20,237 bases of DNA, taken from assembly GCA_016933575.1 (NCBI GenBank), contig JAFGAR010000052.1:1-20237 (forward strand). Direction: 5' to 3'. Positions 6,570 to 18,300 of the stretch are shown here, piece by piece. Numbering within the stretch: the first letter of the stretch is position 1; each line of letters opens with the position of its first letter. Position numbers and translations under genes: made by a program. The DNA comes from Candidatus Thorarchaeota archaeon. GTDB taxonomy: Archaea; Asgardarchaeota; Thorarchaeia; Thorarchaeales; Thorarchaeaceae. The notes under the pieces are model-generated. The model was not told where the DNA came from. It did no database searches and worked only from the letters and a program-made list of their open reading frames with translations.

Positions 6570-7196
6570 ATGATGCCAGTGAATATATTCAAGACAGTTC
6601 AGCAGAGCTATGATAGAATGGGAGCAACCTATCATAGATTTAGAGACAATGAGAAATTCCGAGGCGAGCTGGAGAGATTCTCTACACTGCTTCCACCTTC
6701 AGGTAGAGTCCTTGATGCAGGCTGTGGTGTCGGAACGCCAACATCTGAATTTCTGGTCAGAAGAGGATTCGATGTCACCGGTGTGGATATCTCCCAGAAG
6801 ATGATCGACCTTGCCAGAGTAAATGTTCCTGATGCGACTTTCTATCAGCAGAACCTTCTAGATCTGGACTTTCCTGATTCCTCCTTTGACGGTGTTATCT
6901 GTGTGTACACCCTGTGGCATATACCGCGCAGCAACCATCAAGCAATACTGCAGAAGTTCCATCGTGTACTCAAGAGCGATGGAATCCTTGTGATAAACAC
7001 AGGCACATCAGAATCAGAAGGGATGAGTGAATTCTTCGGAGAGCCTATGCTGTGGAGTACTAATGATCCGAAGGATACTCTCGCTGTGATTCAGAATCTA
7101 GGCTTTGATGTCTTGTTCGAGGGGATTCTCAAGCTTGGAGGTGAACGACAGTATTGGGTGTTTGCCAAGAAGACTTCAGAGACATTCGCTGAATAG
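6570..7196 (+). CDS. Class I SAM-dependent methyltransferase
   Basis: Motif I RVLDAGCGVG, VTGVDISQKMI, FPDSSFDGVIC, LKSDGILVI. Confidence 0.92.
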   Translation: MMPVNIFKTVQQSYDRMGATYHRFRDNEKFRGELERFSTLLPPSGRVLDAGCGVGTPTSEFLVRRGFDVTGVDISQKMIDLARVNVPDATFYQQNLLDLDFPDSSFDGVICVYTLWHIPRSNHQAILQKFHRVLKSDGILVINTGTSESEGMSEFFGEPMLWSTNDPKDTLAVIQNLGFDVLFEGILKLGGERQYWVFAKKTSETFAE

Positions 7197-7392
7197 CATG
7201 ATTGGCACTGATCTCTGCTTTATTTTCAATAGCGCCTGAATAACTTGAATCAAGAAGCTCACATGACAAAAGAAGTACAGCTGTTGATATCATTCGCAGA
7301 TTGTGATTATTCCACCTTATGCCATCTTGCGTCAATGTACTGAGTTTAATAATGTTGCAACATTCGTATATTGATTCAAGAGATGATGATCG

Positions 7393-8322
7393 ATGAAAAG
7401 GAGACCGAAAGCATCTCATTGTCGTAGAGTACTTAGTATCGCAATGCTCTTCCTTCTGAGTCTATCCTCTTTCTCGCTGCGAGCGATTGACGCTCAGCCA
7501 GGAATTACTGACCTCTCTGGAGTAAATGTAGCCATATACAAGGGAATTGGTGTGATGCCTTCGAGTCGCAATGCTCTCAATCGGATGTTCGGGTGGATGA
7601 ACGCGACGGTCGCAAACATGACAGCATCGCAGATCAAGAATGGGTCTCTTAGTGATTTCGATATCCTTGTTGTGCCAGGAGGATCCGAAAGCACAGCGAA
7701 CAGTGAGCTTGATTCGGACGGAAAGCAGATGATCAAGGATTTCGTTGCTCAAGGCGGCTCATATTTCGGGATTTGTGGCGGTGCCACCTTCGGAGCACAA
7801 TACTTGCGCTTCTTCAGGGGTCAGATGGCAGTCGTGTCTGAGCCTGGCTCTATCATGCACATGACTCCCATGCATATTGATCGGAACTGCTCGGGACCGG
7901 ACCTCTCTGGTTGCCCGGAGAATATCTCGGTCATGTACTACAATTCTCAATACTTCATCCCGACTCCTGGGTATGACATTCATACCATAGCATCCTATGA
8001 CCACAATGATCGACCTGGGATGATAGCGCTCAAGGATAATAATGGAACGGTCTTTCTCTCAAGCCCACATGCAGAGTATGAGGAAGATGACGACAGGGAT
8101 GACACGAACTTCGCTGACGACTTTGAAGATCCGGAATCAGAATGGGATCTCCTTTTCCAAGTTTCAAAGTGGCTTATCGAAGCTTCCTATGTCGAACCTA
8201 CTGATTCGACTACAACATCTGATCTTTCTGATTTCGACCTGTCGCTGACCATTGCTGCAACTGTTTGTTGTGCGGTTGTGGGATTGGTAGGTGTTATTCT
8301 CTATAAGACTAAGTACAAATGA
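7393..8322 (+). CDS. Secreted, membrane-anchored BPL_N / class I glutamine amidotransferase-like protein
   Basis: Basic plus hydrophobic signal peptide; DILVVPGG, GGSYFGICGGA (nucleophile Cys at 7774), LSSPHAE (His-x-Glu at 8068-8076); S/T linker, C-terminal TM and KTKYK tail. Confidence 0.8.
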   Translation: MKRRPKASHCRRVLSIAMLFLLSLSSFSLRAIDAQPGITDLSGVNVAIYKGIGVMPSSRNALNRMFGWMNATVANMTASQIKNGSLSDFDILVVPGGSESTANSELDSDGKQMIKDFVAQGGSYFGICGGATFGAQYLRFFRGQMAVVSEPGSIMHMTPMHIDRNCSGPDLSGCPENISVMYYNSQYFIPTPGYDIHTIASYDHNDRPGMIALKDNNGTVFLSSPHAEYEEDDDRDDTNFADDFEDPESEWDLLFQVSKWLIEASYVEPTDSTTTSDLSDFDLSLTIAATVCCAVVGLVGVILYKTKYK

Positions 8323-8347
8323 AGAGTATCATTTACAAGGCTCGCTT

Positions 8348-8629
8348 CTATAGCCGGCTTAGAGCATCCTCGATTTCTGCAAGGAACTCCGGATGCTTCT
8401 TAGCCTTATCTTTTGCTTTCTTGAATGCATTCTTCGCATCCTTCTGTTTCCCTCTCGCAAGGTGAATCTTTCCAAGATAGAATAACGCTGCTGGATGACT
8501 CGAATCTAGGTATTTCTTTGAAATACTCTGTCTGGGATCTCCTGCGATGCAGTCCTTTACCAGACTTGCAGAACTCATGCAAACGGTCTTTGGATTAATT
8601 TGACTGGCATCTTTCGATTGATGATGCAA
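8348..8629 (-). pseudogene. Probable remnant of a TPR protein C-terminus
   Basis: Only LDSSHPAALFYLGKIHLARGKQKDAKNAFKKA..EIEDALSRL is TPR-like. The ORF's N-terminal ~40 aa look non-coding, and an adjacent frame gives EYFKEI just upstream, suggesting a frameshift near 8510. Confidence 0.45.
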
Positions 8630-8756
8630 TCCACTTGGGTAGATTGCAGTTTGCTATCTGAAACAGAACTTTGACAACTAAGTTTATCAAGCGGCCTGGT
8701 GGAAGTTATTTGGTTTGTTTGGTTTTCGCGTCAGTAGTTAGAGGAAGGTTAGTAAG

Positions 8757-11700
8757 TTGAAACGAATCTACCTGATTTTCGTTACACTATTTTTCATGTT
8801 CTTATTCTTCGGGGCAGATATCAAGAGCGCGCTGGATCATCCTGAGATGAATGGATACGCATCAAATGAGGAGGTCGGCCTACGATCTTCTGAAGACCTC
8901 GTTAGGAGCGTACTCGCTGAGATTGGTCCTGCAAAGACACCAGTTACTTTGAAGGATCTAGTAACAGAGCTCCAGTTAGTGACTCCTTTGATCAATCAGA
9001 CTGACTGTGATGGTGATGGACTCTGGGACATCATCGAATCAGTCATCGGTACAGACTTCAATGATACTGATTCTGATCGCGACACACTCAATGATACTTA
9101 CGAGGTTTTCAACGACCTTGATCCTTTGGCAGCGGATTCAAATGAAGATGGTATTCCAGACAATCATGAAATCCGAAATGTTCTTTCATTAGACATCGAT
9201 GGTGATGGAACTCCAAATGCATGGGATTTCGACAATGATAATGATGGTGTGAGCGATGCGATTGACCTTTCGCCAAATGCGAAATCTTCAATCAATGATG
9301 CTTTTGATATCCAAATAACTACTGATGGAAAGCCCCTCTACATCTCATTTCAGATAGTTCCAGATAATCCCCTGCACACCAGACTTGTTGATCAATGGTG
9401 GGATTGGCCAAACGATACAGAAGATAGGATGCAGGATTTAGACGGATCGCAAAAAGATGTGCAGGTATTACCTTTTCTGAATCTCAGTATAAACTTCGAA
9501 CTTGACCAGAGGTTGGTCGAGGGGTATCCTATGCTAGTGACCTATGATGGATTGCTTGCTGCTTTGACCTCTGTTTACGACTCTGGGAGTGTTGTTGCAT
9601 TAGAATCAAGAATCCATATCCCCGAAATGACCTTTACCAATCTCTCATTGCATGCAGAGCTCATATGGAAGGTCGTTGGTTATACAGACAGACAAGCAAT
9701 TGCATTGATGGATGATGAAGGTGCATTCCTCTCCTCTTACTCCAACGGTTTAGCTGTTGCAAATGCAACTGACCTCTTCTCCTCTTCTGCCTTGCAGAAA
9801 ATCGACTTGGCTGATGGAATGATCGCTCTACGGATGCTTGGTGGCGGTTTCCTATCAGTTTCCCCCAATGGTCTTTTGTATTTCAATGGGACCGAACTTG
9901 GTCAAAGCGAAACTTTCATGCCTTACAACACCTCTCAAAATCAGATGTCACTGCGATCGATAGCGACGGGTATGTATGTTGCAACAGGTGCTAATGGTCT
10001 AATGATCGCAAATAGCACCTCTGAAGAGGTCTTTCAGATCGCAGACCTTGGCATCTATCCAGAACCAATAACCTTGGAGATATACGATGATAGCTTCAGA
10101 TTCTCAGGTATCTCTGTTCAGGAGTGCTACTACACCAACATGGGTGTCTACTATAGCAATAATCGTAATCAAACAATAGCGGCTCAGGGACTTCTCTCGT
10201 ACGATTTCTTGAGGAATTCCACAACTACTCTCTGGGATATCCCAGCTGTGCTGGCTGATCATGAGATAGGCTTGATGTACCAGAATCAATCATTTCGCGG
10301 AGTTGACCACGCATATGTATCTCTGAGTAATGATCTTCTGCCCCATGCGCTTGATACTCTCCCCTCATTCAAAATACTTCCTGTGATCATAGCTGGCGCA
10401 CACAGAATCAAGATCGCCGATTTGTCTGAGGTCCTCGAAGGCACTTATGTCGCTGGGCATGTACTCTGTTTTGACTTAGGTATTTTCAACACATCAGACG
10501 TAAAGTCCCTGTCCTGTTATTTCTACAATACTACTACCTACGAAGCCTTGACAATCGGGCAGATTATGGATGAAATCAGAAGCTGGGGCTACGACGATAT
10601 CACCACAGAAGCCCTCATGATCACGATGTGCAAATTCACAGCAGGAGAATGGATAGTTTGCCAAGAGGGATTCACCAATGAGGTTCCCGATGTCTCGATT
10701 GTGGAAAGTTGGGTTCTGTTCGCCAAAGGCGTCTTTGGAACATTTGGAGATGACATACTGAAAATAACCTGTAAGCTCCTCCGGACTTATTTCGATGAGC
10801 ATTTTATGATGCTGAAAACCCGTCCACGCAGCAATGCTATCTGGTCTGAGAAGGCACTGTGGCAACGAGTAACTACTGCCGGAAAAGCCGTTACATCTGC
10901 ACAAAAGGTCTCCAAATTCTTCAGAAGTAATGCCATCGGGATCTTGTGCATTGTGATAGATGTTGGACTCTCAATATATGCTGCATTTCTGATAGCTGAA
11001 GAGATTGGAGGTAGGCTTGGTCAGGAAATAGGGGCAACATATGGCGTAATCTCATCTATCGTTAGTCTGGTGATAGGAATCCACCTACTAGTCATCGCAA
11101 TGGCAGGACCGATTGGATTTGCAATAGCGGCAGTAATTTCTCTGATACTGGGGCTTGCTGAGTTATGTGGTGGTGTCATCTCAAAGTTTGTTGAGTGGCT
11201 AACAGAGACCATTTTTGGAAGTGTAGATAGGATTAGTTCTACACTGCCTTTGTCTGACATTTCAGATATCAGATTCGAAACTAATGATTCCACTCTCAGT
11301 GTTGGTGATAGACTAACGATGTTCTGCAAATTGATAGGAAATGTTACCGGTTCGGGAACCGAGCAGCGAAGGTGGGTAGGTCAAAGCTATAGCATCCCTT
11401 GGATAAGTATGGATATGCCCTCCGGGTCGAATTCTGCTACTGGTAGTTCTGATACTGCGGACTATGATTTCCTCCAGAACACTCTGTTTGGAATTGTGCC
11501 TGGCGATTACTGGGAAGCAAGAATGTACAACTACTCGGTGTGGATCGAGCCTGATGTCGCTTCACCTAATTTTCCAGTTGCCATAGGGCTGCACACGGAC
11601 TATCATATTTGGGATATCTGGTCACATTCTGTACTAGGACTATTCGATTGCCGACATGAGGACGAATATTTCGATAGCATGACCTACGTATACACACGAA

Positions 11701-14700
11701 TCTATTTCGATGTCATGCCGGACAGTCTTGACGCTTTTGTAGAATGGAGATCCATTCATGCTATCGATTCAGATATGGATGGATTGAACAATACAATTGA
11801 GAGCAGCTATGGTTCTTCCAGTCGCTGGTCATATGATACTGATTGTGATGAGCTTAATGACGCATTCGAAGTGACTATTGGCACAGATCCACGGAAACGC
11901 GATTCTGATGACGACTCACTTAGTGATTATTACGAGTGCCTCTATGGCACGAATGCCACAGACAGCGATTCTGATGGTGATGGACTTTTCGACTACCTTG
12001 AGATCGCTGGTTGGCAGATTAGGTTCGACTATATGTCAAACTCCTCACTTCCTTTTGAAATGCTTGTTACATCTAGTCCTTGGATGAATGATAGTGATGG
12101 TGATGATGTTGTGGACTTTGATGAATATCAAAGCCATTTGAATCCAAGAAGCGGTGATACAAACGGTGATAGGCATTCTGATGAGGCTTTGCCTAGGATC
12201 AGGTCGTACATTGATGACTGTGCAGCTGATGTTTATGTCGATGACCTGTGGAAAGACTCAATCTATCAAGGATTCTTGCATACCGAAAATGAGAGCTATC
12301 TTGGTGGAGGTCTGGCTTTCAGTGATGAAGGATACATCTATGTTCCAAATTCTGTTACTGGGGTTGAGAGATTTTACACAAATTTCACAGTAGCGCCAGT
12401 GCCATCGCACTATTTCCCTGACTTGGTTCTCTCAGTCTATCCGTATGCTCAGGCCATGGCCGTTGATGTAGACAATGCAAATGACTGGATCTATGTGATT
12501 CAGCAATTCATAGACGCTGGCTCTTGGGCACATACGGATTTGTACCAATATTCCCTTGATGGGTCTGTCATCAATCCTGGTAGTTGGACCCAGCCTACAG
12601 ATGGCCATAATTATGATGTCGTTGTAGGTGCAGATTCAAGCGTCTTTCTTGCTCATGAGAATTATATCGTGAAATATAGTTCGACCGGGATGCTCCTAGC
12701 CACTTGGGCTGGTCCTTCTATCGTTGATCAGCAACTACTAGAGGTCGTAGTAGATGATGTGAATGGGCTTCTCTATGCGACAGATCGCGGTCGCTGTCTT
12801 TCAGACATTGAACCCGGTCGCATCATTAGGTTGAATGCAACTGATGGTAGCTACCTCGGCTCAATTCCAAAAGGCCCATTCTATGATATGTGTCATATCG
12901 CAGTTGATGATGAGGGGTATATCTATGCGATTGGTAAAATGCTCAATGAGTCCGCATATATTTGCAAGTTCGATAGGAATGGTATGGAAGACATGAGTTT
13001 CAGGAAGAACCTCTATGATCTCTTTGGAGCCGGATATTGCGATGCCCTTTATGTTGATCAGGGTTATATCTACATCTGTTACTATTGTGACAATCTTTCG
13101 GGAACCCGTGTCCTCTGGAAACTTCATCAGGTTACTACGAGTGATGAACCCTGTTTGACTGATGATAATCCTGATTGGGATGGCGACGGCTTGACTAATC
13201 AGCTGGAGGTCAATGGTTGGGAGATCACTGTTGCCTTCAATGCGACCTGCACTATGACCTTCAATGTGACCAGTGATCCACGTCTGATTGATACTGATGG
13301 AGATCATCTCAGCGACTACCTTGAGTACAACCTCACATCAAATCCGCAGTGTTCTGATTCCGATGCAGATGGTGCTTCTGACCATCAGGAGTGGTGGATG
13401 AACTCACATCCTGGTGAGGTATACGTTCCTCCACTGATGCACCCACATTTTCTTGCTCCTGATATGGAATCCACATCAGCGTCCATGGCATCAACGGTGA
13501 GCCTGACCCGTTGGGATAGTGATGGGGATCTCCTTGGAGACGGTGTGGAGTTGGCTTATGGAAGTAATCCGACCTTGCAAGATTCTGATGGCGATTCTCT
13601 ATCAGACCTAGTTGAGTTCCAGCTCAATTCCGATCCGAACAAGATCGATACCGACGACGATGAAGCAACAGATGCCGAGGAGTATACAGGAAACTCAAGT
13701 CTCCTCGTAGCCGATTCTGATGGTGACTTTGCATTCGACGGAGCAGAGTATGACATGGGCTCCAGTCCCTTGAATGCTGATGTTGATGAAGATGGCATCG
13801 TCGATGGCGACGAGGCTCTGTTCGGAACGAACCCATTCTCTAGCGATTCTGACGGCGATAATGTGTCTGATTGGATGGAGCTCAGCCTCTGGCTAGACCC
13901 TCTCAATAATGATTCAGATGGAGACGGCGTTCTTGATGGCGTAGAGTTGGAATGGGGTAGCAATCCTTGGAGTCACGATTCTGATAGGGATGGCGTTCCA
14001 GATGGAGAGGATCCCGATACCTTCATCACTTGGTATGGACCGATAGTTCTCGCCTATGATATCGATGAACAGAACCAGACCTTGTCCTTTGCTGAGAAGC
14101 TGCAGGATTACACAACTGTGATCATGGTATCAGTCGACGAACTCATGCATTCCTACACAGAGTATCCATACATCGTTCTGGTAGGTCGTCCTGATGCTGA
14201 TAGTGATACCGTAGCTGGTCTGACCTACTCGCTTTTGGCGGATACTGGTAGTGTCCTTGGAGAGATGATGGAGCCAGAGTCTCACGAGGTCGCAACCCGC
14301 TATGGCTACTGGACTGATCCACAGACCATTGTTATACTCTCGGAAGCATATGATAGCGATGTCTACACAGTATTACAAATCCTCCGTGGCAGGAATATAT
14401 CGATTCTTCTTGACTCTGTGTATATCGAGTATCTAGCGGAGATTGTTACTGACAACGTTACCTATGCACATGCTTTCGAAGTGAACGAGATTGACACGGT
14501 CAAATCAACGGATACGATACTGTCCATTGCACTAAGTGGCCTTGCAGTACCTATTCTGCTCATAACGCGATATAATGACACCACGACTCCATATCAACTG
14601 ACCTCCAATTCGGGATTAGCTGAGAATGAAGTTCCTTTGGGCAAATATATCGGGATTGACTTGGCATTCAATGGGGTGTCAGGCGGTACAATCCAAAGCG

Positions 14701-15095
14701 CTCTGATTCAGATATACTATAAGGCATTGGATCTTGACTTCAATAGAGATGGGATCATCAACCAGATGAGCGACTTGAATGAAACTTCTCTCTGTCTGTA
14801 CTGGTATGATGAAGAAACTTCTTCTTGGGTCAAACTATCTGAAGATCTCGACTGGGTGCTCGATTGGGGTCTCAACACGATTGATTTGGAACTCTACGGG
14901 GAGCATTATGCTGGATTCATATGGGTACAAGTCACCCACTTCTCACTCTTCGCGGTGGCAGGTGAATTGATTGGTGCTGTATATCCTGATTTGACATATC
15001 TAGCGATATTGGTTGGATGTTTCTGCGTGGTCGCCGCGATAATCCTCCGTCGAAAAAGGAAAGGGCGATTTCATACGGACAAGAAGACATCCTAA
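8757..15095 (+). CDS. Giant (2112 aa) cell-surface protein, copy A: Ca-binding repeats, fascin-like trefoil, hydrophobic helical domain, NHL-like propeller, HFS motif, C-terminal TM anchor
   Basis: Signal peptide MKRIYLIFVTLFFMFLFFG; DxDxDG blocks at ~9003-9272, ~11766-12185 and ~13173-14020; trefoil ~9690-10050; hydrophobic helices ~10930-11220; propeller ~12290-13130; VTHFSLFAVAG; TM followed by RRKRKGR; many N-x-S/T sequons. Confidence 0.9.
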   Translation: MKRIYLIFVTLFFMFLFFGADIKSALDHPEMNGYASNEEVGLRSSEDLVRSVLAEIGPAKTPVTLKDLVTELQLVTPLINQTDCDGDGLWDIIESVIGTDFNDTDSDRDTLNDTYEVFNDLDPLAADSNEDGIPDNHEIRNVLSLDIDGDGTPNAWDFDNDNDGVSDAIDLSPNAKSSINDAFDIQITTDGKPLYISFQIVPDNPLHTRLVDQWWDWPNDTEDRMQDLDGSQKDVQVLPFLNLSINFELDQRLVEGYPMLVTYDGLLAALTSVYDSGSVVALESRIHIPEMTFTNLSLHAELIWKVVGYTDRQAIALMDDEGAFLSSYSNGLAVANATDLFSSSALQKIDLADGMIALRMLGGGFLSVSPNGLLYFNGTELGQSETFMPYNTSQNQMSLRSIATGMYVATGANGLMIANSTSEEVFQIADLGIYPEPITLEIYDDSFRFSGISVQECYYTNMGVYYSNNRNQTIAAQGLLSYDFLRNSTTTLWDIPAVLADHEIGLMYQNQSFRGVDHAYVSLSNDLLPHALDTLPSFKILPVIIAGAHRIKIADLSEVLEGTYVAGHVLCFDLGIFNTSDVKSLSCYFYNTTTYEALTIGQIMDEIRSWGYDDITTEALMITMCKFTAGEWIVCQEGFTNEVPDVSIVESWVLFAKGVFGTFGDDILKITCKLLRTYFDEHFMMLKTRPRSNAIWSEKALWQRVTTAGKAVTSAQKVSKFFRSNAIGILCIVIDVGLSIYAAFLIAEEIGGRLGQEIGATYGVISSIVSLVIGIHLLVIAMAGPIGFAIAAVISLILGLAELCGGVISKFVEWLTETIFGSVDRISSTLPLSDISDIRFETNDSTLSVGDRLTMFCKLIGNVTGSGTEQRRWVGQSYSIPWISMDMPSGSNSATGSSDTADYDFLQNTLFGIVPGDYWEARMYNYSVWIEPDVASPNFPVAIGLHTDYHIWDIWSHSVLGLFDCRHEDEYFDSMTYVYTRIYFDVMPDSLDAFVEWRSIHAIDSDMDGLNNTIESSYGSSSRWSYDTDCDELNDAFEVTIGTDPRKRDSDDDSLSDYYECLYGTNATDSDSDGDGLFDYLEIAGWQIRFDYMSNSSLPFEMLVTSSPWMNDSDGDDVVDFDEYQSHLNPRSGDTNGDRHSDEALPRIRSYIDDCAADVYVDDLWKDSIYQGFLHTENESYLGGGLAFSDEGYIYVPNSVTGVERFYTNFTVAPVPSHYFPDLVLSVYPYAQAMAVDVDNANDWIYVIQQFIDAGSWAHTDLYQYSLDGSVINPGSWTQPTDGHNYDVVVGADSSVFLAHENYIVKYSSTGMLLATWAGPSIVDQQLLEVVVDDVNGLLYATDRGRCLSDIEPGRIIRLNATDGSYLGSIPKGPFYDMCHIAVDDEGYIYAIGKMLNESAYICKFDRNGMEDMSFRKNLYDLFGAGYCDALYVDQGYIYICYYCDNLSGTRVLWKLHQVTTSDEPCLTDDNPDWDGDGLTNQLEVNGWEITVAFNATCTMTFNVTSDPRLIDTDGDHLSDYLEYNLTSNPQCSDSDADGASDHQEWWMNSHPGEVYVPPLMHPHFLAPDMESTSASMASTVSLTRWDSDGDLLGDGVELAYGSNPTLQDSDGDSLSDLVEFQLNSDPNKIDTDDDEATDAEEYTGNSSLLVADSDGDFAFDGAEYDMGSSPLNADVDEDGIVDGDEALFGTNPFSSDSDGDNVSDWMELSLWLDPLNNDSDGDGVLDGVELEWGSNPWSHDSDRDGVPDGEDPDTFITWYGPIVLAYDIDEQNQTLSFAEKLQDYTTVIMVSVDELMHSYTEYPYIVLVGRPDADSDTVAGLTYSLLADTGSVLGEMMEPESHEVATRYGYWTDPQTIVILSEAYDSDVYTVLQILRGRNISILLDSVYIEYLAEIVTDNVTYAHAFEVNEIDTVKSTDTILSIALSGLAVPILLITRYNDTTTPYQLTSNSGLAENEVPLGKYIGIDLAFNGVSGGTIQSALIQIYYKALDLDFNRDGIINQMSDLNETSLCLYWYDEETSSWVKLSEDLDWVLDWGLNTIDLELYGEHYAGFIWVQVTHFSLFAVAGELIGAVYPDLTYLAILVGCFCVVAAIILRRKRKGRFHTDKKTS
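13173..14020 (+). repeat. Protein-level tandem ~22-aa DxDxDG-L-x-D-x-x-E-x-x-x-G-x-(N/D)-P Ca-binding (thrombospondin type 3-like) repeats
   Basis: For example DSDGDLLGDGVELAYGSNPTLQ / DSDGDSLSDLVEFQLNSDPNKI / DSDGDFAFDGAEYDMGSSPLNA / DSDGDGVLDGVELEWGSNPWSH; degenerate at DNA level. Confidence 0.85.
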
Positions 15096-15250: not shown

Positions 15251-15345
15251 TCATCCATTGATTAGAAATACATTTTAGAACCTTTTGGTCTGATTATGCT
15301 ATTCGTCTGGTTCTATTCGCATTGTTGGTTAGAAGGAATATACTA

Positions 15346-18300
15346 GTGAAGCGACCATTGCCATTGCTTTTTGCACTTTTTGTGTTATTCTTATTCATAG
15401 GTTCTGATCTTAGGAGCGCTCTGGATAATCCTAGGTTCATTCATTCTGATTCAGAAGAAAGCGATGTTTTGCAACCTGAGAATTATCAAGTGCAGAACTT
15501 GGCAGATCAACCGAATCCACGCAAAGTATTCTCACTTAGGAATCTTGCAATAGAACTTCAAAGTGTCACGCCTCCAGCAAATAGGATCGATTCGGATGGT
15601 GACACACTCTATGACTCGGTCGAACTTGTTCTGGGGACAAATAGCACCCTTAATGATACAGACCATGATTTCTTGACTGATGACTATGAGGTCTACAATG
15701 GTCTTGATCCAACTGAGCCTGACACTAATTTTGATGGCATGCCTGACAACTTGGAATGCGATGTGTCTTCCTTGGATATCGATCAGGATGGCATTATTAA
15801 TCCTTGGGACTTTGACAATGATGGAGATTCGGTAATTGATAATGCTGATCTGTCACCCATGGCGTTAACTGAGGTAGAAGATGAGTTCAACTTTGAAATC
15901 GAGACCGATGGAAGTCCGCTCTATCTAACTTGGCAAATAAGACCTGAAAATCCTAGCCATCTGCAGTTATACAAGCAATATTGGGACTGGCCAAGTGGGG
16001 ATACAGAGGGTCTCATGAGGGACTATAATAACTCAATAAGAGATGTGCAGGCAATACCGCTCCTGAATGTGACTGCCAACTACATTCCTGACCAAGGTGA
16101 CTTGGTTGACTATGGAATATCCTCATTTGAAACCTACGTACTGGTCCCGTTAATCGCTGTACGTGACAATGGAAAGATTGTTGCCTTCAAGGGAAAGATG
16201 TTCTATCCAACTTCTGCACCTCTCAATTTGATTCTTAGTGTCAAACTAATTTGGAGAATCGTGGGCTATTCAGATGGGGACTTGATAGCATTCCAGGGAA
16301 CCGATAATGGCGGGAATAACCACCTATCTGTGGATTCAGAAGGACTTCTTTCTGTCGCGGCCATTGATCCGGAAGATGGACAATTCGAGGTAGTTGATAT
16401 AGGTCATAGCGACTATGCTAGCCATATAGCAATCAGAGCACCTAATGGTTTGTATGTTTCAGTAAATCCTGATGGTACGATACTTGCAGATAGCGAAACC
16501 ATAGGTGTAGAAGAAACGCTCATCATTGAAAAATGCAATCCTACTAATTGGGAGCAGGCAGCATGGCTTGGGACCAAAGTGGTCATGAAAGACTATCTTG
16601 ATCGATACATCTCAGTCCTTTCAGATACTACCATCAGGGCGTATTCTACCACTGGATTCAATGGAGCAGAGAGATTCAACCTGGTTGACTTGGGAGTATA
16701 CGCATCTCCAGTAACTCTGGTTACGTATGACGATCCCTTCATGCTTACAGGTTTTCGGGCAGAAGCAAACTATGGGACCGATTTGGGATATGTCTATAGT
16801 CCTCACGAGAATGTAACTCTAGCTGCAAATCTCTTTCTAAGCTATCAATACCTCAGGAACTCATCCGTTGGATACAATGATATTCCTGATATACTCACAG
16901 CTACTGACTTCAATGCTGAAATAACTAGTAATTCATATCCACATAGTGATATTGCATTCATTTCAATGGCTAAGGAAACATTGCCGCTTGTTTTGGACTC
17001 TCTCCCATCAAATGAGATACTTCCGATTCTTACGATTGTTTATGATTCATGTAAACTCCTAGACCTTTCGGATCTGCTAGTTGCAGGTTATACTCCCGCG
17101 AATCCAACAGAAATCGATTTCCACACACTTACTTTGCAATCCCACAAATCGATGAAGACTGGCTTCTATAACACATCCAGCAAAGATGCCCTGTCATATG
17201 AAGAAATCATGGATCGAATTGACTATCTCATTCCTGATGATTATGCTTCTCTTGTCGTTCAATGCATGATTCTCAACTGGATGTCTGGAGAGCTTCTTGA
17301 TGCTCAGACAGATGTTTCAGAGTATAGAGATATAGCGGGAGCGATCTCTCAGGTTCTTCTTTGGACTAGTCTTGTCGTGGGAAGTGTCAGTTCTTTAGCG
17401 AGTATTATATTCGGTGGAAAGGCCTTTCAATCAGTACAACTAGTACTGGAGAACTCTTTGGGCAAAGTCACTGCATTCTCAAAGACTGCTGTGTTACAGA
17501 ACAAGGATATCATTACCAAGCAGATTCAAGGTGGAGTAAAGGCAAAACTGGAAACGACAAGTATCTGGGATCGAGTTGGACAATTTCTTCTTGTTGTGTC
17601 AATCCTTACCGAATGCACCATCTCTGTCCTACAGGGACTTGCTCTTGCGGAGGAGATAGGGGGGAATCTTGGACGCGATATTGGAGCTTCTTTTGGCACT
17701 TTTAGAGCTGTCATATTGACACTAGAGCTGGTCGCTCTCTATTATCTTGGTATGGGATTTTCAGCAGTTGCGCTGTCTGGTTTTGGTGTCATATTAATTG
17801 CCATCTGGTGCGTCTTGGATTGTCTCCTTGGACTATCGGATAAGCTTGCAGCTTGGCTATCTTCTCTAATGATAAGCCATGCCCGGTCATATAGTACAAC
17901 ACCTTCCCTTAAGGGAGCGGATATCTCGAAGGATGTACTGGATTATGATTCGAATGGACTAAACATTGGAGATGGATTTAGTGTCTTGGCACGTCTGACA
18001 AGTCGATTGGAATCTCATAGTATAACCTGTAGAGACCAAAGCATCTGTATCCCATATGTTACAATTAATGTACCAGCAGGTAGTTGGTCGACTACTGGAA
18101 GCACTGGTCCCGATTTGATTAGTTCTCAGCAACCCACTTATTGCGATGAAGTGAGTGGGTGGTGGAAGGAGCAAACATATGACTCATCTGCTTGGATTTA
18201 CCCTGGGACTGCAATGGCAAACTTCCCCGTCATGACTAATCTACACATGGACTATAATCTCAGATGGCAGTATGATTACAGGTGGTGGTGTTTTGGATGG

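Follow-up and report, generated by a model that had tools for sequence, protein, structure and literature searches.

A conserved membrane module inside giant calcium-binding surface proteins of Candidatus Thorarchaeota and its probable four-pass topology

A 20,237-nucleotide stretch of DNA from a Candidatus Thorarchaeota archaeon (GenBank assembly GCA_016933575.1, contig JAFGAR010000052.1; the whole stretch is referred to below as the window) carries two tandem open reading frames (ORFs), A and B, that encode giant surface proteins with a membrane module in mid-chain; the remaining genes of the window are ordinary metabolic genes. The module has the same layout in every copy, consisting of a helix H0, a basic loop, a helix TMA, a glycine zipper, a helix TMB, a turn, a helix TMC and an amphipathic helix (Table 1). 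Judged from its sequences, the domain is conserved and lineage-restricted, and it appears to form an undescribed family, with no match in Pfam, NCBIfam or the literature. We consider it probable, albeit with limited confidence, that the module resides in the membrane of the producing cell, which it would cross four times, with its basic loop in the cytoplasm. In the mechanism that we propose, the signal peptide would export an N-terminal ectodomain of ~620 amino acids (aa), H0 would bring the chain back across the membrane, and the Lys/Arg-rich loop would remain cytoplasmic. TMA would then lead out, with the tip of the TMA/zipper hairpin protruding slightly outside, TMB would lead in, the uncharged PxxGW turn would reverse the chain and TMC would lead out again, after which the amphipathic post-helix would rest on the outer face and a C-terminal ectodomain of ~1250 aa would be exported, ending in a stop-transfer anchor with a basic tail. 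So arranged, the module would staple the protein to the membrane in mid-chain and display two separate ectodomains.

The initial annotation of the window had described, at positions 10815-11220 (residues 687-821 of A), a basic stretch followed by three Gly/Ala-rich hydrophobic helices, and the translation of this segment matches the strings quoted there (KTRPRS..KAVTSAQKVSKFFRS and the three helices) letter for letter; the translation of 17341-17870 in ORF B likewise keeps AEEIGGNLGRDIGA and has charged residues inside its helices (E, E and D). A is an otherwise acidic protein, as had been stated (D+E 16.0%, K+R 4.9%, net charge -235). The further hydrophobic helix that had been assigned to B ahead of its basic stretch is present (Kyte-Doolittle (KD) mean 1.94) but is not specific to B, for A has the homologous H0 (residues 646-668, KD 1.24), as do all 33 homologs that cover the position, at a fixed distance upstream. 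The conditionally inserting pore-forming or translocation bundle that had been put forward found no support in profile, fold or gene-context tests and is disfavored, and it is the alternative named at the time, a four-pass anchor with a cytoplasmic basic loop, that is better supported, with H0 as the fourth helix in 33/33, conserved Lys/Arg residues after it and a loop that is 17% K+R.

From their sequences, both flanks of the core look external. At the N-termini of the 15 full-length members examined (the truncated B apart), 12 have a basic n-region and a hydrophobic segment, three of them behind an N-terminal extension that probably reflects an early start-codon choice, and the other three (P0021, P0023 and P0026), which start without a signal segment, may be cut at the 5' end. 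Of the same members, 12/15 have at the C-terminus a hydrophobic helix with a Lys/Arg cluster behind it; in P0012 an anchor-type helix lies ~260 residues ahead of the C-terminus, and P0013 and P0021 have none. The database gene call for A (P0005, 2099 aa) begins at an internal ATG, 13 codons late, and so removes the signal peptide, whereas the N-termini of orthologs (MKR, a hydrophobic region and IGxDxKxAxD) agree with the TTG start of A at 8757. In both A and B, the core is flanked on either side by Ca-repeat motifs of the DxDxDG type. A contains 38 sequons (N-x-S/T), none of them between residues 592 and 842, and these are enriched over the expectation from composition in the N flank (15 against 5.4, 2.8-fold) and in the C flank (23 against 8.9, 2.6-fold), compared with 1.6-fold for other window proteins and near-expected numbers in B (7 against 5.9 and 9 against 6.4). 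Across 22 homologs, H0 and the loop hold zero sequons against 13 expected by composition, and sequons resume in the post-helix segment. The only named families that the flanks match are CglD (NF033765, 70.4 bits against a cut-off of 400) and MtsD (NF047639, 57 against 800), in the repeat arrays only; these myxobacterial proteins share thrombospondin type-3-like (TSP3) Ca-binding repeat arrays in large surface adhesion/cohesion proteins, but they are bacterial and lack an internal membrane module, and CglD is named a lipoprotein. The conflict that had been noted between extracellular-looking flanks and three hydrophobic helices is a real one: if both flanks are external, the number of passes between them must be even.

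The anatomy of the module was derived from 34 non-identical homolog sequences (19-69% identity to A) and is numbered by A residues; the alignment is shallow, with an effective number of ~4, and the sequences are related, so that the counts overstate independence. Within this alignment, conservation of the core pattern is judged to be well beyond chance. Its most conserved part is the glycine zipper, in which I750, G751, G752 and G755 are invariant in 34/34 sequences and the transmembrane glycine-zipper motif (G/A/S)xxxGxxxG is present as G755-x3-G759-x3-G763, in addition to G751/G752, in a segment modeled as helical (G759 in 30/34; G763 in 28/34, the remainder having Ala). Position 757 is acidic in 82% and Y762 is conserved, and near-invariant positions extend over the whole module (G737, I740, A747, G759, G763, G787, G821 and P831, the last marking the start of the next domain). 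In TMA, D735 is acidic in 82%, and A/G743 and I746 are conserved along with G737, I740 and A747. H0 is preceded by P-(E/D), has conserved Gly at 656, 661 and 664, and bears one to four acidic residues, usually a mid-helix Glu/Asp, with Glu/Asp usual at 658. Basic residues occupy positions 673 and 676, directly after H0, in 76% and positions 717, 720 and 723, just ahead of TMA, in ~70%; the intervening loop is 48-90 aa long across the family, is predicted to be helical and contains 17.1% K+R against 6.6% D+E in 22 homologs, compared with 4.9% K+R for the whole of protein A. The invariant zipper, together with the conserved carboxylates (D735, E757, D/E802 and usually E658), may hint at more than passive anchoring, for example tight helix packing, self-association or a bound cation.

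Hydrophobicity was assessed with KD 19-residue means and Wimley-White octanol 19-residue sums, using published scale values. In A, KD values were 2.3 for the signal segment, 1.24 for H0, 2.47, 2.55 and 2.36 for the core helices and 2.74 for the C-terminal anchor; the corresponding values in B were 2.15, 1.94, and 1.89, 1.67 and 2.36, its anchor lying beyond the contig end. The three core helices range from 1.2 to 2.7 across the homologs, with all tabulated values except two at or above 1.5, and membrane partitioning of TMA, TMB and TMC was favorable in 34/34 (octanol medians -4.4, -7.5 and -4.3 kcal/mol). We observed a marked asymmetry of charge in 22 homologs, with 272 K+R and 104 D+E in the loop (1587 residues), 22 and 39 in the zipper segment, none of either in the TMB-TMC turn, and 30 and 42 in the post-helix. 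This distribution, with a basic loop, net-acidic proposed outer segments and an uncharged inner turn, is consistent with the positive-inside rule with both flanks outside, and the rule has been confirmed structurally for archaeal Mtr subunits (PMC10998594). An AlphaFold2 model (211 aa, 34 sequences; predicted template-modeling score 0.50), usable only for residues 725-820, contains antiparallel helices at 725-750, 752-781, 785-805 and 807-820 with a predicted local distance difference test score (pLDDT) of 80-90, the zipper being continuous with TMB (752-781); a longer construct (321 aa, 23 sequences) gave a mean pLDDT of 55.8, too weak for use. Aromatic and charged residues fit membrane boundaries (F/W675, K717-R723, Y/W741, Y762, W788 and W814), and D735 and D/E802 would lie at a similar depth toward the outer face. 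An antiparallel three-helix unit has its ends on opposite sides of the bilayer, and one further pass is therefore needed, which H0 would provide.

Several observations weigh against this proposal, among them the weakness of H0. Its KD ranges from 0.8 to 2.2 and is below 1.6 in 18/22 homologs, it is plainly polar in the distant member P0018, and the octanol sum of its best 19 residues with charged carboxylates has a median of 0.0 kcal/mol and is favorable in only 15/33, compared with a median of -5.0 and 33/33 when the carboxylates are neutral. AlphaFold merges H0 and the start of the basic loop into a single long helix (647-686), which has a pLDDT of 42-63 and is not confidently docked. The absence of sequons helps little: the depletion is real (0 against ~10-13 expected), yet it was rejected as a topology test as non-discriminating, and zero sequons would not be predicted for a neutral cytoplasmic loop either (~10 expected for the loop alone), a point that is itself weak given the relatedness of the sequences. 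The core helices do not exceed the colicin E1 hairpin in hydrophobicity and, as a minor point, a sub-threshold MtrG-like motif in the module (see below) is cytoplasmic in Mtr, opposite to the side proposed here.

These doubts about H0 could be accommodated by a resident module of another topology, in which H0 does not span and one of the three hydrophobic helices, being re-entrant or confined to the outer leaflet, restores parity. The likeliest candidate is TMC, a short helix with only 11-15 hydrophobic residues ahead of the conserved Asp, and anionic lipid head groups would then be bound by the Lys-rich loop on the outer face. In most homologs H0 does fall short of the usual insertion thresholds, most members have a short TMC, the cytoplasmic position of the MtrG-like motif ahead of TMB would fit TMA running out-to-in and TMB in-to-out, and long exported segments need not follow the positive-inside rule. 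We nevertheless hold such a topology to be unlikely. In the AlphaFold model a turn of 3 residues separates TMB from TMC, whose 21-residue helix runs antiparallel to TMB and packs against it (pLDDT 80-90) and should therefore span if TMB spans. The arrangement would also leave the basic loop, with its net charge of +168 over 22 homologs, on the outside and a net acidic loop on the inside. The amphipathic post-helix and the sequons just past TMC are in keeping with a full pass that ends outside. Burial of the helices in the core of an extracellular helical domain, never within a membrane, would likewise solve the parity problem and agree with two extracellular flanking domains, but we give it very little credence: in all 34 homologs, ~60 helix residues in succession lack a polar face, the column-mean KD exceeds 2 at most positions, octanol sums are favorable in 34/34, the other helices are too few and too short for burial, and the predicted aromatic and charged residues (Y762, W788 and K717/K720/K723) occupy positions usual for membrane boundaries.

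A conditionally inserting bundle would hold the whole chain outside except for the C-terminal anchor, with H0, the basic amphipathic helices and the post-helix covering the hydrophobic helices until a trigger such as contact, Ca2+ or low pH causes the latter to insert into the cell's own or a neighbor's membrane and to form a pore or a second anchor. This model removes the parity problem without H0 having to span, and the module, like the colicin-type pore domain (PF01024; by analogy diphtheria T and TcdB), is all helical, measures ~190 aa and runs from basic amphipathic helices to hydrophobic helices and then to an amphipathic helix. H0 is insertion-competent in 33/33 with neutralized carboxylates, which would suit a pH or cation switch. 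The hairpin of colicin E1, a control taken from plasmid ColE1 with its identity confirmed by Pfam, is equally hydrophobic (KD 2.04, -8.5 kcal/mol); hydrophobicity was dropped as a discriminator between resident and conditional helices, this control having scored as high as the core helices. Glycine zippers are needed for the activity of TelE, and the same paper lists CdzC/D, Tse4 and VacA, several with cognate immunity proteins (PMC10434224). A protein-language-model search (ESM Atlas) with homolog P0006 returned a Colicin-family cluster at rank 8, a lead only, with a score of 0.83 in a list that is at noise level throughout (best 0.84).

Profile comparisons speak against such a bundle, which we consider improbable, and fold comparisons lend it no support. 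No match to Colicin (PF01024) or another toxin family was found at E<=5 in 23 members, and hhalign of the 34-sequence family profile against the colicin E1 pore domain gave a probability of 0.6%. Foldseek searches of the Protein Data Bank (PDB) with two AlphaFold models, the check that had been suggested against pore-toxin folds, returned only generic helical hairpins and membrane helices (best E 0.5 and 1.3), and VIA-align against 48,161 chains gave a best Z of 7.6 for the TMA/TMB hairpin only, in a range common for helical models; neither listed a colicin, diphtheria T or TcdB chain, with all rows at noise level and models that are only partly confident. Three fold searches in all were without these toxins or a convincing Bcl-2-type match. 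The module has three fully hydrophobic, Gly-rich helices (16% Gly in residues 726-806), in contrast to the single Ala-rich hairpin within the ten-helix bundle of colicin, whose E1 pore domain has 7% Gly. The hydrophobic moment of H0 is low (median ~0.24) and three of its glycines are conserved; by its sequence it therefore does not look like an amphipathic surface or coat helix, and AlphaFold builds no shielding coat. Colicins are released without signal or anchor, whereas the module proteins have a Sec signal peptide and their own stop-transfer anchor; from the established behavior of the translocon, helices so hydrophobic would be expected to enter the membrane of the producing cell in the course of export. 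Neither an immunity nor a lysis gene was found adjacent, and no immunity-type neighbor is conserved at the loci examined.

Apart from toxins, the module shares features with two kinds of membrane protein. Like glycine-zipper proteins, a motif class rather than a homologous family, it has a Gly ladder (G751/G752, G755, G759 and G763) whose helix continues into a membrane helix, and GxxxGxxxG proteins also include the resident EspZ, IFITM3 and C19orf12 (Kim et al. 2005, as cited in PMC10434224). Unlike in glycine-zipper toxins and small membrane proteins, the ladder is here one element of a 3+1-helix module in a self-anchored surface protein of 2100 aa, for which no immunity partner was found. 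MtrG (PF04210), the single-helix subunit of the stalk of the archaeal Na+-pumping methyltransferase (8Q3V, 9QTQ), has the motif A-x-x-IG-x-x-x-G-(R/K)-(D/E)-IG-x-x-YG-x-V at the entry to its membrane helix, as does the module. The resemblance was detected in 4/23 members (11.5-18.7 bits, below the cut-off of 27; profile positions 33-61 of 64) and in a PDB profile search with the core, where MtrG came first (chains 9QTQ_S and 8Q3V_G, E 0.13-0.16), followed by chance matches. Only ~28 residues match, and MtrG is single-pass with the motif on the cytoplasmic side; in the Mtr structure its N-terminus is inside and its C-terminus outside, and within the stalk the helix is closely paired with MtrA (PMC10998594). 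The likeness is most likely a convergent helix-packing motif at the membrane boundary.

Scans of whole proteins and of 23 core segments with Pfam and NCBIfam assigned no family to the core and yielded, besides MtrG, only sub-threshold matches to DUF2207_C (E 2.2) and a type VI secretion system effector family (E 0.6), and we found no relevant literature on Asgard or Thorarchaeota giant surface proteins with such a module. The proteins nearest to the A core in the databases are hypothetical proteins of Candidatus Thorarchaeota metagenome-assembled genomes (~50% identity in the core). A search of the source genome with the core profile recovered three copies, namely A, B and a third on contig C212, and in 301 genomes across the phylum it recovered 23 loci in 12 genomes, all of one family; 11 of the 76 other genomes of that family had the core, compared with 0/224 elsewhere. 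All sampled loci lie inside open frames of 2000-2500 aa where the contig permits. The 34 non-identical copies all occur in proteins of 2000-2700 aa, at approximately residues 650-850. An exhaustive HMMER search of 1.84 billion cluster representatives matched only 19 proteins, with the domain at approximately residues 650-850 in those with an intact N-terminus and no stand-alone core among them; nor did searches for homologs that have the flanks without the core, or the core alone, find any. Extending the query to the core plus 200-aa flanks gave the same restriction to one family and added a divergent subfamily of ~2667 aa (L027, G087:C7:100500-108800; L028, G149:C17:31000-39300). Its members keep H0, a very basic loop, TMA and TMC but have lost the IGGxxG zipper, with a QGG..P.. 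polar stretch in its place; TMA and TMC are strong, H0 and the TMB equivalent (which has a Lys and an Asp) are marginal, and the helix count is still four, so that they form a natural zipper-less comparison set. The proteins are multi-copy, with three in the source genome and up to five in a relative, often in tandem, and no gene neighborhood is conserved: the neighbors are housekeeping genes and vary from each examined locus to the next.

The cell surface of Asgard archaea is little known, and cell-cell contact is central to current ideas on their interactions with partners. The proteins described here combine the character of giant Ca-binding surface glycoproteins with a mid-chain membrane module without a described counterpart, for which IGGxxGxExGxxYG ... 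PxxGW ... D may serve as the diagnostic motif of the family. If the four-pass topology is correct, a single chain would present two large ectodomains with a basic loop of 50-90 aa in the cytoplasm, a plausible link from the surface to the interior. A conditional or channel-like module would represent a new membrane-active domain. That the module is more than an anchor is a bolder claim, which we regard as a slim prospect even with its two versions taken together. It might be a switchable membrane-insertion device, with H0 or the three-helix unit inserting, possibly into the membrane of a neighbor or partner, once Ca2+ or protons neutralize the conserved acids; in that case the giant protein would physically tether two cells or act as a conduit from one to the other. 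Alternatively, copies might associate with one another through the invariant zipper, in an assembly that binds cations or conducts ions under the control of the two large ectodomains as a gate. In both versions the archaeal lineage closest to eukaryotes would possess a cell-surface machine of a new kind.

Table 1. Window coordinates of ORFs A and B and of the elements of their membrane modules (functions and topology as predicted or proposed)
Feature	Position	Strand	Residues	Description
ORF A, giant surface protein	8757..15095	+	2112 aa	TTG start; signal peptide, Ca-repeat motifs, membrane core, NHL-type propeller, more Ca repeats, C-terminal anchor
ORF B, tandem paralog	15322..20235	+		3' open at contig end; 33% identity to A over its length
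A signal peptide	8757..8816	+		KR n-region, ~15-aa hydrophobic region, ..GA|D
A C-terminal anchor and basic tail	14991..15092	+	2079-2097	KD 2.74, then RRKRKGR; tail proposed cytoplasmic
A helix H0	10692..10760	+	646-668	Marginally hydrophobic, Gly-rich, acidic residues; proposed first pass, out to in
A basic loop	10761..10931	+	669-725	+12/-3 in A, sequon-free; proposed cytoplasmic, amphipathic Lys-rich helices
A helix TMA	10932..10997	+	726-747	Conserved D735, G737, I740, A747; pLDDT 80-90
A glycine-zipper segment	10998..11045	+	748-763	IGGxxGxExGxxYG; modeled as helical N-terminal extension of TMB
A helix TMB	11046..11102	+	764-782	Hydrophobic at every position, high column entropy
A turn	11103..11120	+	783-788	Tight, uncharged, consensus I-P-x-x-G-W; G787 in 32/34
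A helix TMC	11121..11165	+	789-803	Position 802 D/E in 94%
A GG break and amphipathic post-helix	11166..11222	+	804-822	G805/G806, ends at near-invariant G821; proposed in-plane, outer face
B helix H0	17332..17415	+	~671-698	KD 1.94; homologous to A 646-668
B basic loop	17416..17583	+	~699-754	
B TMA, zipper, TMB, turn, TMC, post-helix	17584..17880	+	755-776, 777-792, 793-811, 812-821, 822-834, 835-853	

B lies 226 bp downstream of A, and similar arrangements recur elsewhere. In a relative with a single contig (L025, G239:C1:1600000-1619999), two members of 2165 and 2198 aa are encoded head-to-tail, 100 bp apart, and tandem pairs occur likewise in G206:C52 and G158:C25, so that duplication in tandem appears to be the norm in this family. 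The third paralog of the source genome (L024, G000:C212:4000-23000; ORF 6800-13030, 2076 aa) stands alone among unrelated genes; the opposite strand carries, ~1.2 kb upstream of it, a gene for a small GTPase of the Ras family (L024:5027-5575).

Within the module, the 5 sequences of the A subfamily carry K657-G658 in place of the L-E of most other members, and Glu rather than Asp at 802 (window ~10725-10730 and 11160-11162). An intramembrane Lys-carboxylate pair could here replace a cation site, but the change is a single evolutionary event and has zero statistical weight. Two antisense ORFs run across the core, 10494-10904 (-) of 136 aa and 11021-11329 (-) of 102 aa; both are most likely spurious, as judged from the sense frame, which is conserved in 34 homologs. 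Residues 1915-1940 of A (14499-14576), ~160 residues upstream of the anchor, form an extra hydrophobic stretch (KD 1.91) with a central Pro that is above threshold in some homologs only and probably corresponds to buried strands rather than to a membrane pass. In several members a (Y/F/S)-P-D motif just ahead of the anchor helix and its Lys/Arg cluster (window 14970-15092 and homolog C-termini) recalls archaeosortase-type tripartite sorting signals, but the tails beyond the basic cluster are long (10-25 aa). Upstream of A, the BPL_N/GATase-like protein (window 7393-8322) contains 6 sequons against 2.2 expected by composition, an unusually high number for a presumed cytoplasmic enzyme.

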